This document shows, in pieces, positions 17,851 through 26,989 of a stretch of 64,000 nucleotides of DNA. The notes beneath the pieces were generated by a model. That model was not told where the DNA came from and did not search any database. It saw only the letters and a program-made list of their open reading frames with translations. The DNA is taken from the sequence record PQ826431.1; one strand, 5' to 3'. Position numbers and translations under genes: made by a program. Position 1 is the first letter of the stretch; each line of letters begins with the position of its first letter. The DNA comes from a phage.

Positions 17851-18291
17851 TTTGAAGGCGTGTCTGAAAGTTTTTCCTACGCCAATAACTCCGCAATATT
17901 TTTCTAAACGTAGATGTTTTAGAATACCTAAGACTTTTGTTTTAGCTGCTTGGAAGGTGTGTCCGATATCTTCTGGCGGGTATTGCTTATCAATGATTTC
18001 GAACTCTTCCTTTGTGAAGGGACGTTTGTTTTTGGAGGCTCTTTCTGCATTTGTATCTCCTAGCCAACCTCCAATTTTAGTCTTACTTTTACCCCAAAAC
18101 TCTGTCTTATTTTTAAATTCCTTTTGAGCACCTGAAGGGATGTGCTTCGCAATGATTGTTCTTTTCTCTAATGCAGACGCTGCTTGGAAAGCGATCTGAT
18201 CATAATCAATTGCAGCTATTGTTTCTTCGTTGACATATAAATGAAGATCTTCAGGTTTAATTAAAATATAACCGCTAATATTTCCCCCTAA

Positions 18292-18501
18292 TTATTCATC
18301 GTCATCCTCTGTTGAGAATGTTTTAGTATACGGACATTGACGACTTTTCGGGATTGCTATAACTTCATCTTGGTTAGCGTTAGAATAGTAGCAATATTTT
18401 GTATTGCCATTAACTTCAGAATCAGACAAGATTAAAGTAATTTGACCTGCTGCTACTGTGAAACTAAAAGCTAAAAGAACGACTGTCAGAATCTTTTTCA
18501 T
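18292..18501 (-). CDS. small secreted/exported protein (signal peptide)
   Basis: N-terminus 'MKKILTVVLLAFSFTVAAGQ' is a typical Sec signal peptide; two Cys in the mature part. Confidence 0.5.
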   Translation of the reverse strand: MKKILTVVLLAFSFTVAAGQITLILSDSEVNGNTKYCYYSNANQDEVIAIPKSRQCPYTKTFSTEDDDE

Positions 18502-18572
18502 AACGCCTCCTAAAAGCCTACCTCATTAAGTAGGTAGGCATAATATCATAACTAATCCCGCAAGTCAAGAAC

Positions 18573-19451
18573 TTATTTAAGGATTGTTGCTTTGGTTAAA
18601 TCTTCCATCAGACCTCGAATCTCATTGAAGCACAGAAGGACCGAAGCTTCAATACTACCTTCTTCGTCTGCAAAATATTTCGGAAAACGTAGTTTAGAAA
18701 GTTTAAACTCTTTATCCACTACAAAATCTACAACACCATCATATTCAAGACCGATTGCAACAACATTTTTACCATCTTCTTTTAGTTCGACAGCTTTAGA
18801 CTCATATAAGGATTCTTTACTCCAAACAACAACGCCCTCGCTATCCTCCATTTTGATATAATTTCCGAGAGTAATACGATCTGCTTCGTGATTCTCCAGC
18901 AATTCACCAAAACCTTTTACAATAGCTTCTTCATGCACACTAAAACCTACTGAAGGGAAAGTCCCCAGAACGGAACGGAGGAAAGAAGTAATCTCTTCTG
19001 CAACCTTTTTACTTCCATTAAGAACATAAAGAAGATTCGTAGTTTTATCCAAGACAACATAGTTAAAGAAATCTTCAGGTTCTGTTTCAGGCAATAGTGC
19101 AAATTCAATATCTTCCTTCATTGCTTTGACTACTTCTTTATCGACATAAAACTCTTTACCTTCGCTCTCCATGTCCTGACGCATTTCTTCTAGACGTTCA
19201 TTCAGAATACGTTTAACTTTCTTTTTATCTACCTTCTTCACAGATTGACCTACATTAAGTAGTTCAAGATCTGAGAACTCTTTTACAAATTTAGAGTCAT
19301 CTTCGAAACGAACAAGACCGATAGTGTGTGACTGGGAGCCTTCTGCTGTTACAAATTCCAGAGGAATATCTGTAATGCTGTTAAGGGATGCTACAGAAGC
19401 ATCGTCACCAACAACCATAGGCAGAGCGGATTTAAAAGATTTTACAAACAT
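18573..19451 (-). CDS. hypothetical acidic protein (292 aa)
   Basis: ORF followed (minus sense) by GC hairpin; no motif recognised. Confidence 0.5.
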   Translation of the reverse strand: MFVKSFKSALPMVVGDDASVASLNSITDIPLEFVTAEGSQSHTIGLVRFEDDSKFVKEFSDLELLNVGQSVKKVDKKKVKRILNERLEEMRQDMESEGKEFYVDKEVVKAMKEDIEFALLPETEPEDFFNYVVLDKTTNLLYVLNGSKKVAEEITSFLRSVLGTFPSVGFSVHEEAIVKGFGELLENHEADRITLGNYIKMEDSEGVVVWSKESLYESKAVELKEDGKNVVAIGLEYDGVVDFVVDKEFKLSKLRFPKYFADEEGSIEASVLLCFNEIRGLMEDLTKATILK

Positions 19452-19507
19452 GTTTCCTCCTATTTAATACATCTCACATTACCGCCCGTAAAGGGCGGCT
19501 TACAACA

Positions 19508-20233
19508 TTACTTGTTAATAATACCTGCGATATTAGGTTTAATGAAACCTGACCACTTCATGATCTTACCTTTATCATCAAAGAACACATACACTTTCTG
19601 TTTTTCATTATAAACGGCATGAACACCAGTGTATGCCCCTTCTGGACGATTGGCATTTCGTTCTTCAATTGAAGCGCATTCTTGTGCAATGGCTGAATCG
19701 ATATCTGAAGTTTTCCAAGTTTTCAGCAACTGTTGTTTAGTTGGATACTTGGAATCATTACTTTTCAATACCTCTTTAATAACTTTCTTTTCTGGATATT
19801 TTGAACGGATTAGAGTGTCACGAGACATACGCATGATACCAGCAGCCATTAGTGCCATTTGAACTGGCTCTGTAAATGTTTGTTCCAAAGCATCAAAATC
19901 AGTATACACAGTTGGAGTAAAAACATCGCCTACAGCATAGTCCAAGAAATTCATCGTATGTTCTTCACCAAAGAACATGTAAGTAAGATAACTGGATACT
20001 ACAAAAATATCCGCTGCTGCATCCAAGAGTTCTACATGATCGTTTACTTTCGCGGCTGTTTCATACTCTTTAAGCTCTTCACGAACGAACCCGATTTGGG
20101 ACATAAATAGCTCTTGAGTGAATTCAGGTTGTTCACCACCTCGTGCTTTGGCATTCCAATCAATTACGTGCTTTGCTGCATTTTTGAAAAATTCAGTATC
20201 GAATTTAATATCTTTAAAAAAATTCTCGATCAT
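19508..20233 (-). CDS. hypothetical protein, possibly MazG-like all-alpha NTP pyrophosphohydrolase
   Basis: 'REELKEYETAAKVNDHVELLDAAADIF' resembles the EExxE...ExxD metal-binding pattern; weak. Confidence 0.3.
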   Translation of the reverse strand: MIENFFKDIKFDTEFFKNAAKHVIDWNAKARGGEQPEFTQELFMSQIGFVREELKEYETAAKVNDHVELLDAAADIFVVSSYLTYMFFGEEHTMNFLDYAVGDVFTPTVYTDFDALEQTFTEPVQMALMAAGIMRMSRDTLIRSKYPEKKVIKEVLKSNDSKYPTKQQLLKTWKTSDIDSAIAQECASIEERNANRPEGAYTGVHAVYNEKQKVYVFFDDKGKIMKWSGFIKPNIAGIINK

Positions 20234-20242
20234 TGTTTCTCC

Positions 20243-20434
20243 TTATTTAAAATATTGTTTTGTAAATTCCACCAGATATACAACAACTGCACCCATTTGT
20301 GTACCTGCTGCACCGTAGACAATAATTAGACTAACCTTCTGCCACCATGTTGGGTGAGGGAAAGTTGATGCGCCAATTATACCACAAGCAACAATAGAAA
20401 GGAACACAAGAACCAGAATAACTTCAATGCTCAC
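20243..20434 (-). CDS. small membrane protein (two predicted TM helices), holin-like candidate
   Basis: 63 aa, hydrophobic stretches 'VILVLVFLSIVACGIIGA' and 'VSLIIVYGAAGTQMGAVVVYLV'; function not established. Confidence 0.35.
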   Translation of the reverse strand: MSIEVILVLVFLSIVACGIIGASTFPHPTWWQKVSLIIVYGAAGTQMGAVVVYLVEFTKQYFK

Positions 20435-20445
20435 TGCAACCTCCT

Positions 20446-21075
20446 TTATGTTTTAATCTTGCCAAAATACAATACTTCAGCTTCCTGTCTTGCTGATATA
20501 GCATCTTCAATATCAGTAAATGCTCCAAGACGGATATCTTTTCCTTGATAGGATATACGAGCAATCCATCTTTTTTCTTTCTCGCTCCACACAACACCTG
20601 TTTTACCAGAAGTGTTGTTTTTCTGTTTTCGTGTATTGTATGACTGGACAGACCTTGTAGCCCAGCGACAATTTTCTTTACTGTAATCTTTTTCCGAGTC
20701 TATTCTGTCAAGAGATAAACCTTTAGGTCTATCTCCCATATCCTCAAAAAATGCAGAGAATGAATTTCTCCAAGCATCGCAGACCTTAATACCACGACCA
20801 CCGTAGTATTCAAAGTGAGTATTGTTTTTGTTATAGCATCTCCCTAACATAGCTTCCCACGATTTGTATGCTCCTGTTTGTGTTGTTTGCGGTCTACACT
20901 TCGAACAATAAGAACTTTTATTCTTCCTAAGTGTTGCCATAGTTACCGTGCAAATATTACCACAATCACAAGAACAAGTAAAACGTCTTTTGCCATGCTT
21001 GTCCCTTTCAATCTCTTCTAAGACAGTATAACAACCACATTTCTTACCTACAAGGTCTACTCTCTTGGCTCCCAT
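20446..21075 (-). CDS. HNH homing endonuclease with N-terminal zinc finger and C-terminal AP2-like domain
   Basis: 'LSLDRIDSEKDYSKENCRWATRSVQSYN' (HNH_3-type motif), 'YYGGRGIKVCDAWRNSF', C-terminal 'GVVWSEKEKRWIARISYQGKDIRLGAFTDIEDAISARQEAE' (AP2-like). Confidence 0.7.
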   Translation of the reverse strand: MGAKRVDLVGKKCGCYTVLEEIERDKHGKRRFTCSCDCGNICTVTMATLRKNKSSYCSKCRPQTTQTGAYKSWEAMLGRCYNKNNTHFEYYGGRGIKVCDAWRNSFSAFFEDMGDRPKGLSLDRIDSEKDYSKENCRWATRSVQSYNTRKQKNNTSGKTGVVWSEKEKRWIARISYQGKDIRLGAFTDIEDAISARQEAEVLYFGKIKT

Positions 21076-22184
21076 GTTCCCTCCACCATTTCCCGTAAAC
21101 GGACACCTGTTGGTTTAGTAGGTATTCCACCATCAGAAAACTCTTCATACTCAATCTCAACAAATTTACCAATTAACATTTCGGCATTCTCTGCTTTACG
21201 ATAATTGATAGTCTCATGAGCATCTTTACGCATTAAGAATTCGACTACTTTACCATTTTCCATCTCACCTGTCAACACTCCATCGCCATTTTTATCACTT
21301 TTTGAATTTGTTACTTTAACTTCAAGGGTGTGGCGAGGCTTACGTTTAATAACGTCATAAGAACGTTTATCAAATTCGTAAACTCCGTGAGCATTACGAT
21401 ATACTACACCTTCAGCTTTCTCAAGTAAAGCTTTTTCATAGAAAGCATCAAACTGTTCTTGGTTTTCAATATACTCTGTATGAACTACGCAAATAAGCTC
21501 GTCAAGACCATAATCTTCAACTACTGCCTTAAGAGCAGTAAGAACATCAACACGTTTTTCAAACGGTAGATCTGGAACTGGAATATCGTATACGTAATAG
21601 TTCAGCAAAGGTGTATTTGCATTATGCTTCTTCCAGGCACTGTTAATTTGTTGTAGACTAAGGACACCTAACCCAGCAAACACTTCACCATCAAGAGGAT
21701 GACCAACAACTTCACTAATAAAGTTTGGAATACCTTTCCAATGAGGTGGCAGGTTGTACACTTCCCCAGCTTTTGATAAACACTCTCCTTTCATGTTAAT
21801 CATAGAACGTAACCCGTTCAGTTTGTATTGTGCATAACCAGGGAACACAACCCTTTCAGGATAATCTTTATAATCCTGGCATTTCATTGGTGTGGAAGGA
21901 ACATGGTTTTCAGCTTCTTCTTTTGTTTTATAATAGCCATTCTTTAACTGTTTTGTCCATTTGGCAAAAGCTTCAAGTTCAGCTTGTTCTTCTGGTGTTG
22001 TTTCATTGGAACGACCAATGTTTTTTGCTTCTGCTGTATAAGATTTTTCTGTGATTTTTCCACCTACCCTTCCATGAGCTACAGTAACAACTGCACCATC
22101 TGTATACACTGTCCACTGTTTAAGTTTTCCTTTTGAATCTTTACCATACAGCGTTTGATTTGTTTGTTGCATTAGTCCTCCCAC
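21057..22184 (-). CDS. nucleotidyltransferase-superfamily ligase (DNA ligase-like)
   Basis: Motif I 'KLNGLR' (KxDG-type with N), motif III 'DGEVF', motif IV 'EGVVYR', motif V 'VIKRK'. Confidence 0.6.
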   Translation of the reverse strand: MGGLMQQTNQTLYGKDSKGKLKQWTVYTDGAVVTVAHGRVGGKITEKSYTAEAKNIGRSNETTPEEQAELEAFAKWTKQLKNGYYKTKEEAENHVPSTPMKCQDYKDYPERVVFPGYAQYKLNGLRSMINMKGECLSKAGEVYNLPPHWKGIPNFISEVVGHPLDGEVFAGLGVLSLQQINSAWKKHNANTPLLNYYVYDIPVPDLPFEKRVDVLTALKAVVEDYGLDELICVVHTEYIENQEQFDAFYEKALLEKAEGVVYRNAHGVYEFDKRSYDVIKRKPRHTLEVKVTNSKSDKNGDGVLTGEMENGKVVEFLMRKDAHETINYRKAENAEMLIGKFVEIEYEEFSDGGIPTKPTGVRLREMVEGTWEPRE

Positions 22185-22393
22185 TTAAAAACTGAAATTT
22201 TCAATCTGTTACACACTTCATCCAAATCTGCGTCGAGTAACGTTGTAGATGTTGCCAACATATAATCAATGCTTGTGAAACCTTGCCCTTTGGCATAGTC
22301 AAGCATATCTTCATACATATCTTCAAGATCACCGTCATCAAAAGTAGCTAGAAAATCCTCGTCCCCGCTACGAACATAAAATGCAGTACTCAT
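22172..22393 (-). CDS. hypothetical acidic protein (73 aa)
   Basis: Small ORF in array. Confidence 0.4.
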   Translation of the reverse strand: MSTAFYVRSGDEDFLATFDDGDLEDMYEDMLDYAKGQGFTSIDYMLATSTTLLDADLDEVCNRLKISVFKWED

Positions 22394-22578
22394 TCATCTT
22401 CATCCCAAGATTCACAAGCACAACAATCATAGATTTCTATAATACCAGTACGTCCACAAGAAAGGCAAGTGATTTTATCACCGTAGAATACATAATTCTC
22501 GTCTCCGTTGGTATTCACGGAAATCAGATCACTGCCACAGGGACATTCCAACCAAGGCACAATGATATCTTTCTTCAT
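22390..22578 (-). CDS. hypothetical zinc-ribbon protein (62 aa)
   Basis: CxC...CxxC pattern ('ECPCGSD...CLSCG'). Confidence 0.4.
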   Translation of the reverse strand: MKKDIIVPWLECPCGSDLISVNTNGDENYVFYGDKITCLSCGRTGIIEIYDCCACESWDEDE

Positions 22579-22749
22579 GTTTTCTCCTTAACCTTTAGGT
22601 GTGCAGAATCCACGATCAAATACATTCTTACGGATGCCTTCTGCTAAAGCCATCTCACAAGCCCCTTGCGATCCGAATTCTTGTGTATAATCATTACTAC
22701 CATGACTCCAAAGAGCAAACAAAATATAGATTGTTGCCATTTTTCCTCC

Positions 22750-23076
22750 TTAAGCATTCAGTTCGCTGTTGAGTTCATATATCTCCTCTTGAAGAGAATA
22801 GATCTCTTCCTCCAAACGGGAGATCTCTTCTTTTAGATATACCATTTCGGATTCTTTCTCTTCTAATTCATTTTCAAATTTTACTTTATTAGCCTCATTT
22901 TCATAATGCAGTTCAGCGTAATCATCACGCATTTGTTCAATAAGATGAATCAGAGACAAGATATAATTGTCTCCCGTTTCATCACACCACTCTTCACCGT
23001 GACGGAGAACGGTAATTCGTCCAGTATCTTCATCTAAAATTGTCTCATATTTACAATCATCTGTATAAATCTGCAT
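22750..23076 (-). CDS. hypothetical coiled-coil protein (108 aa)
   Basis: C-terminal heptad-rich region 'EEISRLEEEIYSLQEEIYELNSEL'. Confidence 0.45.
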   Translation of the reverse strand: MQIYTDDCKYETILDEDTGRITVLRHGEEWCDETGDNYILSLIHLIEQMRDDYAELHYENEANKVKFENELEEKESEMVYLKEEISRLEEEIYSLQEEIYELNSELNA

Positions 23077-23085
23077 TATTTCTCC

Positions 23086-23490
23086 TTATTGAAGTTTAAG
23101 TGAACCACGAAGACGTTTCTCTTGCTGATCACGGATATATTGTGGAACCTCGTGAATTGAATCATTACCGTGCCTATTTTCAACAACTAAAGAGATAACT
23201 TGATAACCAAACTCTTCAGCAAGAGCTAGATAAGGTTTAAGTTCTTTCTCTGTGGTTGAAGTATTAGAAACAATAATCTTGTTAAGATTAGATGCCATAG
23301 CATCACGAACAATACCCTGACACCATGCGTGTGCTTTACCTACATTTTCTGGCTTCCAATCGTAAACACCACTCTCTGTGTAATGATATTGATCTGCCTC
23401 ACAGATAGGCCAATAACCTTCAGAAATAATTTCTGCTACTGTAGATTTACCAGCACCTGAAACACCACGTAAAATGATAAGTTGTTTCAT
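23086..23490 (-). CDS. P-loop polynucleotide kinase-like protein (Pnk kinase-domain-like)
   Basis: Walker A 'ILRGVSGAGKST' at N-terminus, small size (134 aa), adjacent to ligase and phosphoesterase. Confidence 0.65.
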   Translation of the reverse strand: MKQLIILRGVSGAGKSTVAEIISEGYWPICEADQYHYTESGVYDWKPENVGKAHAWCQGIVRDAMASNLNKIIVSNTSTTEKELKPYLALAEEFGYQVISLVVENRHGNDSIHEVPQYIRDQQEKRLRGSLKLQ

Positions 23491-24423
23491 TTATCCTCCA
23501 AAAAAGTTTTCGATTTTTTCACGTCGCTCTTGCTGATTTAAAGCAGCCCATTGAATCTTCGTAAAATTATTTCGAATCCATTCTAACAAAGCGTAATATT
23601 CTTCGTCAACCATTTGTTTGGCATTTTTTGGATTATCCCAAATCAGATCCCACTTTTTATCTCCACCGCGCATAAGAAACTTCTTAGTAAGATAGTGTGG
23701 TGATTTAATTTTTAAAAGTAAGTTGAACGGATAGTTTGTTTCACGAACTACAAACCCTTCGTGTTTACAATGTTTAGACATTTCAACAACATCTGAAAAC
23801 TTAACCATTGGATGAACTTCAGGACGCTTAAATTTGGTGACAGAAGCAATTCCATCAAGAGCACCTTCAGGTAACATAAAACTTGTCCCATCAGGATTTT
23901 GAATTCTGGCACCAATTAAGTATGCACCTGGTTCTTCTTCGACAATATGCGGATCAGAAGGATCACAGATTTCAAAAAGGAAAGTTGCTTTTGCACTCTC
24001 TGTCCATTTGATGAAATGTTCTATGTCATCACACTCTGAAATAATATGATTCTTTGCAATACTTGCAAAATCTGATTCAAGGCTTCCTGTTGTCGATACA
24101 ATAAGTTGACCTTTATATACACCTACAGAGGCCATAAAACCATTTACTTTACGAACCACATCTACAAGTTCATCCGCTGGTAGATCTGTGCCATTCTCAA
24201 AACGATTAAAAATCTTAGTGAAAGGCCAAATAACAACATTGTCATCAGCATCAACAACGATTCCGCGACATTCTAGAAGACGAGAATCAATGCTCCATAA
24301 GTTATCCCAGAAAACTTTGTTCTTATACTTAAGAACAGATAGACCAGAATACTCTCCTTCTTTATATGTTTTCTTATGAACTAAACCTTTTTCAACCAAA
24401 TCGTCGCAATTAAATTTAGCCAC
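23491..24423 (-). CDS. RNA ligase-like nucleotidyltransferase
   Basis: Motif I 'KVNGF', motif IV 'EGFVVRET', motif V 'LLKIKSP'; 310 aa; start abuts kinase gene. Confidence 0.6.
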   Translation of the reverse strand: MAKFNCDDLVEKGLVHKKTYKEGEYSGLSVLKYKNKVFWDNLWSIDSRLLECRGIVVDADDNVVIWPFTKIFNRFENGTDLPADELVDVVRKVNGFMASVGVYKGQLIVSTTGSLESDFASIAKNHIISECDDIEHFIKWTESAKATFLFEICDPSDPHIVEEEPGAYLIGARIQNPDGTSFMLPEGALDGIASVTKFKRPEVHPMVKFSDVVEMSKHCKHEGFVVRETNYPFNLLLKIKSPHYLTKKFLMRGGDKKWDLIWDNPKNAKQMVDEEYYALLEWIRNNFTKIQWAALNQQERREKIENFFGG

Positions 24424-24424
24424 A

Positions 24425-24976
24425 TTATTCTCCTTTGATTATTTTGTGATGGTCTACAGTCACGATATCTCGTTTACTCATCATAGAAATTATCTCATCA
24501 AAATGCAAGATTTTTCCGTGTGCATCCCAACCCACATCTAACATTTTACCATAAGCTTCATCAGGGAAAGATCCGTGGGAATGCCCGTGTAGCATGATTG
24601 ATCCACGACCTTGTTTATTCCAGGAGGCCATAGGGTAATGGCTTAAGACGAAGAACAGCTTCTGATATTTCACTTCGTCATAATACACCACTTCTCCATA
24701 CTCTGCAAGCACTTCTCGGTGTTTGCTGTAGTCATGGTTCCCAACACAGTAGGTGATATCTCCTTGGAGACGGGAAGCAATTTTACGGGTATCTTCTTCA
24801 GTTCCGAAACAGAAGTCGCCCAAATGCCACATCTTAACACCAGGAGTAGTAGCACATTTGTTCCATGCTTCGATCAAGGCTTCTGTCATGTGGTCCATAT
24901 CTTCCCACGGACGATATTCAGGAGCAAACTCTCGAATACGTTTATGCATAAAATGCAAATCGCTTGTAATAAACAT
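24425..24976 (-). CDS. calcineurin-like metallophosphoesterase (candidate RNA end-healing phosphatase)
   Basis: 'MFITSDLHFMH', 'HLGDFCFG', 'CVGNHDY', 'LHGHSHGS' metal-ligand motifs of the metallophosphoesterase fold. Confidence 0.7.
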   Translation of the reverse strand: MFITSDLHFMHKRIREFAPEYRPWEDMDHMTEALIEAWNKCATTPGVKMWHLGDFCFGTEEDTRKIASRLQGDITYCVGNHDYSKHREVLAEYGEVVYYDEVKYQKLFFVLSHYPMASWNKQGRGSIMLHGHSHGSFPDEAYGKMLDVGWDAHGKILHFDEIISMMSKRDIVTVDHHKIIKGE

Positions 24977-25332
24977 TAGTATAATCCCTCGCTAAATAAT
25001 TCATGGTCGTGACCATTACGCTCATGGTCGATCTGGTCAGCATTTTCCGCGATAATGTAAGCATCCGCACGACTCCACCAATTGTAATACTGATCGATAA
25101 AGCCTTGATTATCTGGTGTGCACAAAGTTTTGTTGATTACACCTGCTTCTTTCAACACGTTTAACTGTGCATATAGTACAGGATTTGCATGTCGAACACA
25201 AGGAATAATTAATTCTTCACCATTATTCAAAATATACTTATTTGCAGCACAGACGATAACACGTTGCGCATAATGCCCCTCACCAATCCAGGTAAGAGGT
25301 TGGTAACAAATGTTGTTTTCAATACCACTCAT
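24976..25332 (-). CDS. hypothetical protein (118 aa)
   Basis: ORF in early array. Confidence 0.45.
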   Translation of the reverse strand: MSGIENNICYQPLTWIGEGHYAQRVIVCAANKYILNNGEELIIPCVRHANPVLYAQLNVLKEAGVINKTLCTPDNQGFIDQYYNWWSRADAYIIAENADQIDHERNGHDHELFSEGLY

Positions 25333-25491
25333 TGTTTCCTAATCCTCCTCTCTTAAGTTATCCTCGAAAAAACTAGTATCTGGAAGTAAAAGATCATTGC
25401 TTGTGTCGGGCCAATCCTCTTCTTCTCTGTAGATAAAGTAACCTTCGTCCTCTTCTTGTTCCGACCAAACCGAATGATGCATGTTCTCTCC

Positions 25492-25848
25492 TTAGTAGTG
25501 CACACGAATCATTTTAATACCATAACGCTGCATGGATTCTTTTGCAAGCATGAATTTATCCCCAGCGGCGGGATTAGAAGTATGCACGAAAATGGTAGGT
25601 GAACCAAAGCAAGGTTTACCAAACGCCAGAAGTTCTTCCAGATGCAGGAAAACATCATACCCATCTTGGTCTGACTCCATACCCAAATCGTTGTCAAAAT
25701 GCCACTCGTCTACAAAACGATAACCCTTCTGCACCTCATTCATGTAGTGAGAGGCAAGAAGTTCCTGTGATGTTTTAAACCAGATTGCATCTGGACAACC
25801 ATAATCTTTTGGATCACGTAAATCATCAAGCCAAATAATAGTACTCAT
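25492..25848 (-). CDS. hypothetical protein (118 aa)
   Basis: ORF in early array. Confidence 0.45.
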   Translation of the reverse strand: MSTIIWLDDLRDPKDYGCPDAIWFKTSQELLASHYMNEVQKGYRFVDEWHFDNDLGMESDQDGYDVFLHLEELLAFGKPCFGSPTIFVHTSNPAAGDKFMLAKESMQRYGIKMIRVHY

Positions 25849-25858
25849 ATAACCTCCT

Positions 25859-26329
25859 CTAAGCTGGCATTATTAAAAAAGAACTCTCCACTTCAAAATG
25901 CCAATCGTCAACAAGCCCTGATTCCCAATCCTTCTCTTCATGGAAAGAGCAAATCCAACGGTACATACCTGGCGGTGTATTATCAACATCTTCTGGCAAC
26001 CCGTAATCCAAAGCTGTCAAACCGTTCTCTGTAAAACTAGGATGGAGATTAGGAGCTTTCAATACAGAAACCCTTCCTCCAACATCTACAGCCACAATCC
26101 ACTCTGTCATGTATGGGCTGTCATATTGAGGTTCATCAGAACCTACCTCAACAGCCTCTGTGCGTAAGATGATAATAGCCTGCTCTGTGATTGGGGCTTT
26201 GACAATATACCCGTGATCCTCAAAAAGATCGATAACCTCGAACTCATCGCCGTTTTCGACACCATAACTCTTATTCAAAGAGATAAACTTCGGGTTATCA
26301 TCGTAAGCTTTAGTTACTTTAATTCTCAT
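25859..26329 (-). CDS. hypothetical protein (156 aa)
   Basis: ORF in early array. Confidence 0.45.
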   Translation of the reverse strand: MRIKVTKAYDDNPKFISLNKSYGVENGDEFEVIDLFEDHGYIVKAPITEQAIIILRTEAVEVGSDEPQYDSPYMTEWIVAVDVGGRVSVLKAPNLHPSFTENGLTALDYGLPEDVDNTPPGMYRWICSFHEEKDWESGLVDDWHFEVESSFLIMPA

Positions 26330-26550
26330 TTTTCCTCCTTCACTTTAACCTCAAATTCTACAGGCTTACCCTCAATGTAAAAACAATGATACTCTGCCTT
26401 ATCATCCTCATCACGAGGCCAAGTTACCAAGGAGTTATAGCAATCTTCTGGTGCTTTGAAGATGGTTTTAGTCTCCACAGTAACATTCCCATTAAGTGTT
26501 GCCAATACCACCCACCCAGTTACAGGGATCATAGTGCCTCCACTTTCCAC
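26326..26550 (-). CDS. hypothetical protein (74 aa)
   Basis: ORF with 4-nt overlaps to neighbours. Confidence 0.4.
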   Translation of the reverse strand: MESGGTMIPVTGWVVLATLNGNVTVETKTIFKAPEDCYNSLVTWPRDEDDKAEYHCFYIEGKPVEFEVKVKEEK

Positions 26551-26711
26551 GTTTTACCCTTATCAACCAAGGTCTTTGCTACAGCATACTCCTTCCCATT
26601 AACAAGGAAATAATAAACGATAAAAGATTTCCCGATTGTTACTGTCTTAGTAACCTCTACACGTTTAACACCTTGCATGTATTTTGCCTTACCGGAATAG
26701 AGTAAAATCAT
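26529..26711 (-). CDS. hypothetical protein (60 aa)
   Basis: Small ORF in array. Confidence 0.35.
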   Translation of the reverse strand: MILLYSGKAKYMQGVKRVEVTKTVTIGKSFIVYYFLVNGKEYAVAKTLVDKGKTWKVEAL

Positions 26712-26989
26712 TTTGCATTCCTCTTGTTGTTGATAACATCCATAGCAGTATATGGTTTATTAGTGCCATGATACTCCAGAATCATTGGAGAGCCTTCTTG
26801 CACTACTTCAAAGATACCATAAACAGAACTTTCAGCAAATACCATTTGCTTCGTGCCTTCATCGTTTACAACGAGAGAAAACTTCTTGCCTGTCCCGTTG
26901 AGGATCTCGTATTTCTTGCCAGCAGTGAATAATCCAGAGTACCACTCATTATCTGTTGCTTTTACACACTTCAGGAAAGTCTTGATCAT
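26708..26989 (-). CDS. hypothetical protein (93 aa)
   Basis: ORF in array. Confidence 0.4.
   Translation of the reverse strand: MIKTFLKCVKATDNEWYSGLFTAGKKYEILNGTGKKFSLVVNDEGTKQMVFAESSVYGIFEVVQEGSPMILEYHGTNKPYTAMDVINNKRNAK

Follow-up and report, generated by a model that had tools for sequence, protein, structure and literature searches.

The phage DNA analysed here is a stretch of 64,000 nucleotides (sequence record PQ826431.1), referred to below as the window, which carries on its minus strand three abutting genes for a small kinase, an RNA ligase and a metallophosphoesterase. The original prediction, made from the DNA letters without database searches, had described these genes as a split cassette for RNA repair. 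All three open reading frames are present at exactly the coordinates it had given, and every motif it had listed is found in the translations: HLGDFCFG, VGNHD and HGHSHG in the phosphoesterase, KVNG, EGFVVR and LLKIK in the ligase, and GVSGAGKST in the kinase. The phosphoesterase also contains SDLHF. The three genes, hereafter called the trio, are as follows.

23086..23490, minus strand: kinase (small P-loop polynucleotide 5'-kinase candidate), open reading frame of 134 amino acids
23491..24423, minus strand: ATP-dependent RNA ligase of the Rnl1/Trl1 type, open reading frame of 310 amino acids with a GTG start
24425..24976, minus strand: binuclear metallophosphoesterase of the aq_1665/COG4186 clade, open reading frame of 183 amino acids

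The junctions of the three genes suit coupled translation. The TAA of the phosphoesterase gene is followed by one nucleotide and then by the GTG of the ligase gene, ahead of which lies an AAGGAGA ribosome-binding site; the ligase gene terminates in GGAGGATAA, and the ATG of the kinase gene comes directly after it. An unbroken run of minus-strand genes, reaching from about 28143 to 18573, contains the trio, and the GC content is even across the region (36-41%), with no sign of recent acquisition. A scan of positions 18000-29600 for consensus promoters and terminators gave counts at the level of shuffled sequence (36 versus 32.6±6.1; 10 versus 6.5±2.6), so the operon boundaries could not be placed. 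Most likely, the trio is co-translated from one long early or middle minus-strand transcript.

More than 50 GenBank records of Phapecoctavirus, the phAPEC8-like myophages of E. coli with genomes of about 150 kb (for example Mt1B1_P17, WPEC1, ukendt and Schickermooser), match the 3.7 kb around the trio at 97-99% identity. Five records labelled 'Campylobacter phage' (such as B15, MG065650) are also about 97% identical to the region 22700-26400, and other near-identical records carry Acinetobacter or Serratia phage labels. These labels are probably host mislabels or database contaminants.

The ligase matches the Pfam family RNA_lig_T4_1 (PF09511; E-value 5e-15, 56.3 bits against a cut-off of 28.3) and the PHROGs family phrog_562 (5e-70). 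Nearly all of its 1756 homologues are 290-325 amino acids long and encoded on phage-sized contigs. While a single-sequence search of the PDB gave no match, so that a family profile was needed, the profile built from 32 sequences found T4 Rnl1 as its sole PDB match (4e-10) and did not detect Trl1-LIG. An hhalign comparison with T4 Rnl1, using a sequence 100% identical to T4 rnlA, gave a probability of 96.5% over residues 48-266. In this alignment, R53, K70, F72, K92 and G95 of the ligase pair with R54, K75, F77, K99 and G102 of T4, and E151, E222, G223, K238 and K240 pair with E159, E227, G228, K240 and K242. The ligase motifs comprise Lys92 in KVNG (the adenylylation site), Glu151 in motif III, Glu222-Gly223 in motif IV and Lys238/Lys240 in motif V, and of 121 aligned sequences 120-121 carry the residues of motifs I, III, IV and V unchanged, the lone exception being a gap. 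Outside the motifs, T4 Rnl1 has five residues that we take to be essential from the mutagenesis of the Shuman laboratory (R54, K75, F77, G102 and K119), four of which have aligned counterparts here, namely R53, K70, F72 and G95.

The AlphaFold model of the ligase is confident (predicted local distance difference test score, pLDDT, 92.5). The solved fold nearest to it is Rnl1, rather than Rnl2/3/5, a DNA ligase or a capping enzyme, and fungal LIG and T4 Rnl1 come out almost level with each other. The assignment of the middle gene to the RNA ligases was thus upheld by the RNA_lig_T4_1 family, the profile match to T4 Rnl1 and the fold, which set it well apart from DNA ligases and capping enzymes. 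Beyond motif V, about 69 amino acids of short helices follow, and the profile and hhalign alignments end at T4 residues 249 and 266. In T4, residues ~255-374 form the C-terminal tRNA-specificity domain, which defines the Rnl1 family (PMC11404444). Because the C-terminal region of the ligase has no detectable homology to this domain, and because the NCBIfam RnlA equivalog model TIGR02308 was missed (23.9 bits, below its cut-off of 242.25), the protein is, as judged from its sequence, an RNA ligase of the Rnl1/Trl1 superclade and not a strict Rnl1 orthologue or RnlA equivalog.

The kinase matches AAA_33 in Pfam (2.7e-10) as well as phrog_2071 'ATPase' (2e-56) and phrog_505 'polynucleotide kinase' (8e-8) in PHROGs, and its 331 homologues are all stand-alone proteins of 123-145 amino acids. 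Here too a family profile was needed, since the single sequence retrieved only P-loop noise from the PDB. The best PDB matches of the profile (35 sequences) are mostly polynucleotide or tRNA kinases, with Capnocytophaga Pnkp1 at the top (4xrp, 7.6e-7) and further matches to T4 Pnk (1ly1/1ltq, 1.4e-4), the kinase domain of CthPnkp (4gp7, 5.5e-4) and PSTK (7.7e-4); two Mucorales kinases (9d8a and 9drz) are also among the top matches. That the profile finds Pnkp1, T4 Pnk and the CthPnkp kinase domain first agrees with the earlier view of a Pnk/Pnkp-like enzyme. The P-loop GVSGAGKST is conserved, an invariant Asp33, the putative general base, aligns with T4 Asp35, and in the lid region an invariant Arg106 sits close to T4 R122 in the alignment, without a clear match to R126. 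These features make the protein a candidate polynucleotide 5'-kinase.

The phosphoesterase matches Metallophos in Pfam (3e-5, 24.9 bits against a cut-off of 21.5), and its PHROGs E-value is 6.5e-56, next to 2e-56 for the kinase and 5e-70 for the ligase. Its two-metal site is complete (D6-H8, G53-D54, G79-N80-H81, H113, G131-H132 and H134) and invariant in 38 homologues, and the predicted model is confident (pLDDT 95). The nearest structural neighbour is aq_1665, followed by others that include LpxH, YfcE and Ap4A hydrolases. The protein belongs to the aq_1665/COG4186 clade, not to the Pnkp/lambda-phosphatase clade. The intact two-metal site agrees with the calcineurin-like metallophosphoesterase of the original prediction. 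Two other identities were tried and rejected: PdeM, a DNA-ligase-associated nuclease, matched by NCBIfam at an E-value of 0.0034 with 16.8 bits against a cut-off of 150, and the NARP1-associated ADP-ribose-1''-phosphate phosphatase, which is a Macro-domain protein and not a metallophosphoesterase. Healing of RNA ends by a metallophosphoesterase already has a precedent in CthPnkp, whose metallophosphoesterase domain hydrolyses 2',3'-cyclic phosphates, as does lambda phosphatase (PMC2190708).

The conservation of the gene linkage was surveyed in 80 viral loci with ligase homologues at 40-87% identity, which were scanned with family hidden Markov models. Clustering at 90%, 70% and 55% ligase identity divides these loci into 61, 42 and 26 groups, respectively, and the 42 groups at 70% are counted as lineages. 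The partner genes were found as follows.

Kinase: 75 of 80 loci (fused to the ligase in 12, abutting it in 35, within 1.5 kb in 24)
Phosphoesterase: 66 of 80 loci (fused to the ligase in 0, abutting it in 36, within 1.5 kb in 23)
DNA ligase: 31 of 80 loci, within 8 kb
MazG: 13 of 80 loci
Sirtuin: 11 of 80 loci
cREC: 10 of 80 loci

Kinase and phosphoesterase genes occur together in 62 of the 80 loci. The commonest gene orders are phosphoesterase-ligase-kinase and kinase-ligase-phosphoesterase, besides which some loci encode kinase and ligase as one in-frame fusion of about 430 amino acids; 13 of the 14 loci without a phosphoesterase belong to the fusion lineage. Because the linkage survives both rearrangement and fusion, it argues for a shared function of the three genes. 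Moreover, the phosphoesterase is in most lineages the only candidate 3'-end-healing enzyme near the ligase, which is the main reason for considering it as the healing enzyme. The idea of an end-healing and sealing trio is supported by the kinase profile, by the linkage across 42 lineages and by the kinase-ligase fusions in some of them.

The fusion polypeptides have the kinase at the N-terminus and come from one lineage of uncultured phages (surveyed locus L056, 7539-8831; also L058, L061, L063-L066 and L071-L073). The contig stretches retrieved around the fusion genes, which reach at most 8 kb to either side, yielded no aq_1665-type phosphoesterase, and the neighbours include an Rv2179c-like 3'-5' exoribonuclease and thioredoxin. 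Among the recurrent neighbours of the ligase (an HD-like protein, DUF7390, the Rv2179c-like exoribonuclease, thioredoxin and others), no consistent RNA-repair signal was seen. In another arrangement, found in Vibrio-type, Pseudomonas-type and other phages, the trio lies directly beside genes resembling phosphoribosyl pyrophosphate synthetase and NAPRTase (L087, Vibrio phage Chloris, 5677-8564; L090, 1-2415; L004, 6879-7727), with a Macro gene as well in Chloris. These neighbours match the NARP1/NARP1-AP operon for NAD+ reconstitution in counter-defence (Adps/Namat, Macro), so in those genomes the trio sits in a counter-defence island.

With somewhat better than even confidence, we read the trio as a heal-and-seal RNA repair module that is T4-like and split over three polypeptides. 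In such a pathway, a host ribonuclease, for example an anticodon nuclease, would cut a tRNA and leave a 2',3'-cyclic phosphate and a 5'-OH. The metallophosphoesterase, possibly helped by the nearby cREC protein described below, would open and remove the cyclic phosphate to yield a 3'-OH, and the 134-amino-acid P-loop kinase would transfer a phosphate from a nucleoside triphosphate to the 5'-OH. The Rnl1-type ligase would then adenylylate itself on Lys92, pass the AMP to the 5'-phosphate and seal the break. The substrate of the phosphoesterase, the tRNA target and the counter-defence role are the parts of this scheme that we infer.

Several observations weigh against this reading. In the ligase, the position of T4 Lys119 is taken by an invariant Thr112, and neither profile nor hhalign comparison found homology of its C-terminal region to the tRNA-binding domain of T4 Rnl1. 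In the kinase, a nearly invariant His36 stands at the position of the essential Arg38 of T4. Motif II of the phosphoesterase (GDFCFG) has no counterpart of the GDxxDR Asp-Arg of the Pnkp/lambda-phosphatase clade, and no functionally characterised member of aq_1665/COG4186 was found in the literature searched; for these two reasons, its end-healing role is drawn from gene context, and we regard it as a candidate 2',3'-cyclic phosphodiesterase/3'-phosphatase. When loci were seeded from distant homologues of the phosphoesterase, a ligase lay within 4 kb in only 2 of 4 (Vibrio phage Chloris, L087, and L090, both with ligase and kinase), so the family does not serve RNA repair exclusively. The cREC gene here and the sirtuin in relatives point to a possibly different chemistry at the 3' end. 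Finally, the literature searched held no experimental data on these proteins.

The genes around the trio bear on the alternatives, and these and the other features of the region are listed here.

24976..25332, minus strand: PHROG 839 protein, 118 amino acids (phrog_839, 4.6e-47)
Between the PHROG 839 and cREC genes, upstream of the phosphoesterase: open reading frame of 47 amino acids
25492..25848, minus strand: cREC (cyclic-phosphate-processing receiver-like) protein, 118 amino acids (Pfam PF20274 cREC_REC, 1.1e-13)
22750-23076, minus strand: coiled-coil protein just downstream of the kinase
21057-22184: ATP-dependent DNA ligase (PF01068, 1.5e-9; phrog_114, 1.7e-74)
20446-21075, minus strand: HNH endonuclease (phrog_374, 1e-72)
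29603..31645, plus strand: tRNA cluster of 10-11 genes (ARAGORN, Rfam)

The order in the window is thus cREC, the 47-amino-acid open reading frame, PHROG 839, phosphoesterase, ligase and kinase, followed at some distance by the DNA ligase and then MazG. The cREC gene, which lies 0.5 kb upstream of the trio, had not been included in the original prediction. Its domain was defined by Aravind and co-workers, who predict that it processes cyclic phosphates and link it to the RNA ligases of phages (PMC7824862; also PMC9503650), and its product is predicted to be an accessory 2',3'-cyclic-phosphate or ADP-ribose-cyclic-phosphate esterase. In rV5-like loci, cREC adjoins the ligase or the kinase. The cassette should be widened to include cREC.

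The alternative that survives best, which the original prediction had not considered, is an NAD-dependent route in the fungal and plant style (Trl1/Tpt1-like), as Iyer et al. 2022 predict for rV5-like phages; we consider it possible for this trio, though unlikely. In this route, cREC would generate a 2'-phosphate and a 3'-OH, the kinase would phosphorylate the 5' end, and the ligase would require the 2'-phosphate and leave it at the junction, from which a phage sirtuin or host KptA would remove it with NAD+; the metallophosphoesterase would clear ADP-ribose cyclic phosphate instead of healing RNA. The prediction comes from a computational study by Iyer, Burroughs, Aravind and co-workers, who described a sirtuin-centred RNA-repair neighbourhood in rV5-like and Mydo-like phages and read the rV5 type as NAD-dependent RNA repair (PMC9503650). 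That neighbourhood contains a T4-like tRNA ligase, cREC, a 'nucleotide kinase', a MazG-family pyrophosphatase and a calcineurin-like phosphoesterase, all five of which are present here. In rV5-like loci, the ligase is 57-62% identical and the order is phosphoesterase, ligase, cREC, kinase, sirtuin (SIR2), DNA ligase and MazG, with gaps after the phosphoesterase and before MazG, so that cREC lies between ligase and kinase there and upstream of the phosphoesterase here. In these and related loci the sirtuin stands between kinase and DNA ligase, a point in favour of the route together with the cREC gene 0.5 kb from the trio.

A tblastn search with an rV5-type sirtuin found none in the 64-kb window, so the locus is a rearranged form of the rV5-type neighbourhood that lacks the linked sirtuin by which that neighbourhood is defined. 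Phapecoctaviruses nevertheless keep a sirtuin that is 55% identical to the rV5 type; in close relatives the distance between this sirtuin and the cassette is about 27 kb, which would put it some 5 kb past the left end of the window, a distance that speaks against its participation. The survey counts also tell against the route: sirtuin and cREC each occur in 10-11 of the 80 loci, against 66 for the phosphoesterase, which abuts the ligase. Whereas the phosphoesterase is termed 'occasional' in the earlier study (PMC9503650), it is a near-constant partner in our survey, and it is sirtuin and cREC that are restricted.

The ligase itself offers arguments on both sides. His159, which lies 8 residues after the motif III Glu, and Lys248 and Arg252, which lie 8 and 12 residues after motif V, are outside the canonical motifs and invariant in 120-121 of 121 aligned sequences, again with a gap as the lone exception. 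They recall by position the fungal His-Arg-Arg triad that binds the 2'-phosphate, in which the His is 9 residues after the motif III Glu (PMC11404444), and hhalign places Ile167 of T4 Rnl1 opposite His159. The likeness is weak, because basic residues follow motif V in T4 Rnl1 as well. Similarly, the near tie between fungal LIG and T4 Rnl1 in fold favours the NAD-dependent route, but the ligase profile detects T4 Rnl1 and not Trl1-LIG.

A second alternative, which we consider quite improbable, is that the kinase and the phosphoesterase act on small molecules, either in nucleotide metabolism with MazG and ribonucleotide reductase or in the degradation of nucleotide or ADP-ribose immune signals, and that they lie beside the RNA ligase merely because all are early genes. 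The kinase has no equivalent of Arg38 and is named 'nucleotide kinase' by Iyer et al. (PMC9503650). LpxH, YfcE and Ap4A hydrolases are among the structures nearest to the phosphoesterase after aq_1665, two of the four loci seeded from it are without a ligase, and nucleotide-metabolism genes surround the trio. Against this stand the in-frame kinase-ligase fusions in 12 loci, the persistence of tight linkage despite changes of gene order (kinase abutting or fused to the ligase in 47 of 80 loci, phosphoesterase abutting it in 36 of 80), and the best named matches of the kinase profile, which are mostly polynucleotide or tRNA kinases.

The same fusions and linkage pattern disfavour the idea, which we hold to be very improbable, that the trio processes DNA ends for the adjacent DNA ligase with a PdeM/MPE-like nuclease and a DNA 5'-kinase. 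In its favour are the weak PdeM match of the phosphoesterase already mentioned and the nearness of the DNA ligase gene, which is located downstream at 0.9 kb from the kinase gene and 1.3 kb from the RNA ligase gene and has a counterpart within 8 kb in the 31 loci counted above. The PdeM match, however, falls far below its cut-off, the trio is retained in the 49 loci that have no DNA ligase close by, the kinase fusions involve the RNA ligase and in no case a DNA ligase, and the middle gene encodes an RNA ligase by every test.

This DNA ligase had been noted earlier as a second ligase-like gene; it is indeed a ligase, though an ATP-dependent DNA ligase (PF01068, phrog_114) and not a second RNA ligase. 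Its open reading frame is 375 amino acids long here, from an upstream GTG, versus 371 amino acids as annotated in Schickermooser, ESCO37 and Mt1B1_P17, which may be a matter of the start codon only. The HNH gene shares 19 nucleotides with the 3' end of the DNA ligase gene and looks like a homing-endonuclease insertion, because it is missing at that position in the same three phages. The coiled-coil gene at 22750-23076 occupies the place of the sirtuin gene in rV5-like phages; GenBank names for its product conflict ('hol-like chemotaxis', 'DNA polymerase I', hypothetical), and no domain match backs any of them.

The PHROG 839 protein is translationally coupled to the phosphoesterase, as the stop of its gene overlaps the phosphoesterase ATG (TAATG). 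Its domain of about 95 amino acids has 298 remote homologues, is often C-terminal in larger proteins and contains the invariant residues Arg47-His48, Gly77-Phe78 and Ser114-Glu115. Searches with Pfam, with the family profile against the PDB and with Pfam on the longer homologues gave no match; some GenBank records label the protein 'anti-restriction nuclease'. Since the gene stands beside the ligase in only 3 of the 80 loci, we regard it as lineage-specific, and its membership of the cassette is uncertain.

Compared with known systems, the trio would correspond in function to T4 Pnkp (pseT) plus Rnl1 (rnlA), the same pathway being distributed over two polypeptides there and three here. In T4, a HAD (DxDxT) phosphatase domain fused to Pnk heals the 3' end, a step for which we propose the metallophosphoesterase here. 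The trio ligase is shorter than Rnl1 (310 versus 374 amino acids), without a recognisable C-terminal tRNA-binding domain or an equivalent of Lys119, and the trio kinase has only 134 amino acids, with His in place of Arg38 of T4 Pnk. The bacterial Pnkp/Hen1 and Pnkp1-Rnl-Hen1 systems of Clostridium thermocellum and Capnocytophaga gingivalis combine the same chemistries (P-loop kinase, binuclear metallophosphoesterase and ATP-dependent ligase). Their domains are fused in one polypeptide or work in an obligate complex with the Hen1 methyltransferase, in contrast to the separate polypeptides of the trio; no methyltransferase domain was found in the open reading frames scanned between 22172 and 28143. 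In fungal and plant Trl1, to whose fungal LIG the predicted fold of the trio ligase is as close as to T4 Rnl1, a 2H cyclic phosphodiesterase, a 2'-phosphate requirement and a need for Tpt1 are found, and no 2H or Tpt1/KptA domain was detected among the cassette neighbours. The Mucorales provide a further likeness, as they have a stand-alone RNA ligase with separately encoded healing enzymes (PMC10946426), so that healing and sealing reside on separate polypeptides as they do here. The arrangement itself is not new: GenBank already names the three products 'putative polynucleotide kinase', 'putative RNA ligase' and 'putative phosphoesterase', and the genes have been described computationally for the rV5-like relatives. 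In this respect, the result of the genome scan mainly confirms existing annotation.

Phage heal-and-seal RNA repair is a classic answer to host anticodon nucleases, as exemplified by T4, in which tRNA repair by Pnkp and Rnl1 counters the anticodon nuclease PrrC. By analogy to T4, tRNAs cut by an anticodon nuclease may be the target of the trio. A cluster of 12 tRNAs had been counted in the window, but ARAGORN finds 10 genes and Rfam 11, one of them weak; the cluster lies 4.6 kb from the trio on the opposite strand. The weak eleventh element, at 30304-30388 on the plus strand, scores 39 bits in Rfam and is missed by ARAGORN, and RefSeq annotates its counterpart in Mt1B1_P17 as a tRNA pseudogene, the anticodon being GTA (Tyr). 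The clustered tRNAs are possible substrates of the trio, or a parallel remedy for tRNA cleavage. Together with the NARP1-type neighbours in relatives, the cluster fits a counter-defence role circumstantially.

A bolder, combined proposal would make the trio the core of the most widespread phage RNA-repair module, the aq_1665/COG4186 proteins new healers of RNA 3' ends, and the ligase a 2'-phosphate-dependent, Trl1-like enzyme by virtue of His159, Lys248 and Arg252; that all of this holds together seems doubtful to us. If the aq_1665 proteins are healers, a structural-genomics orphan would gain a function. If the ligase is Trl1-like, the phage sirtuin or host KptA would take away the junction 2'-phosphate, and the tRNA splicing chemistry of fungi and plants would have a counterpart in a bacterial virus. 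To our knowledge, KptA has no known function in E. coli.

The trio occurs in at least 42 phage lineages, whose hosts include enterobacteria, Vibrio and others, and it often lies beside counter-defence genes for NAD+ reconstitution. Defences that cleave tRNA keep emerging, among them PARIS, retron-PtuAB and Cas13a. Characterisation of the three proteins would give the aq_1665/COG4186 metallophosphoesterases a function, establish a minimal polynucleotide kinase of 134 amino acids and reveal whether such ligases need a 2'-OH or a 2'-phosphate end, and the small stand-alone ligases and kinases could serve as reagents.

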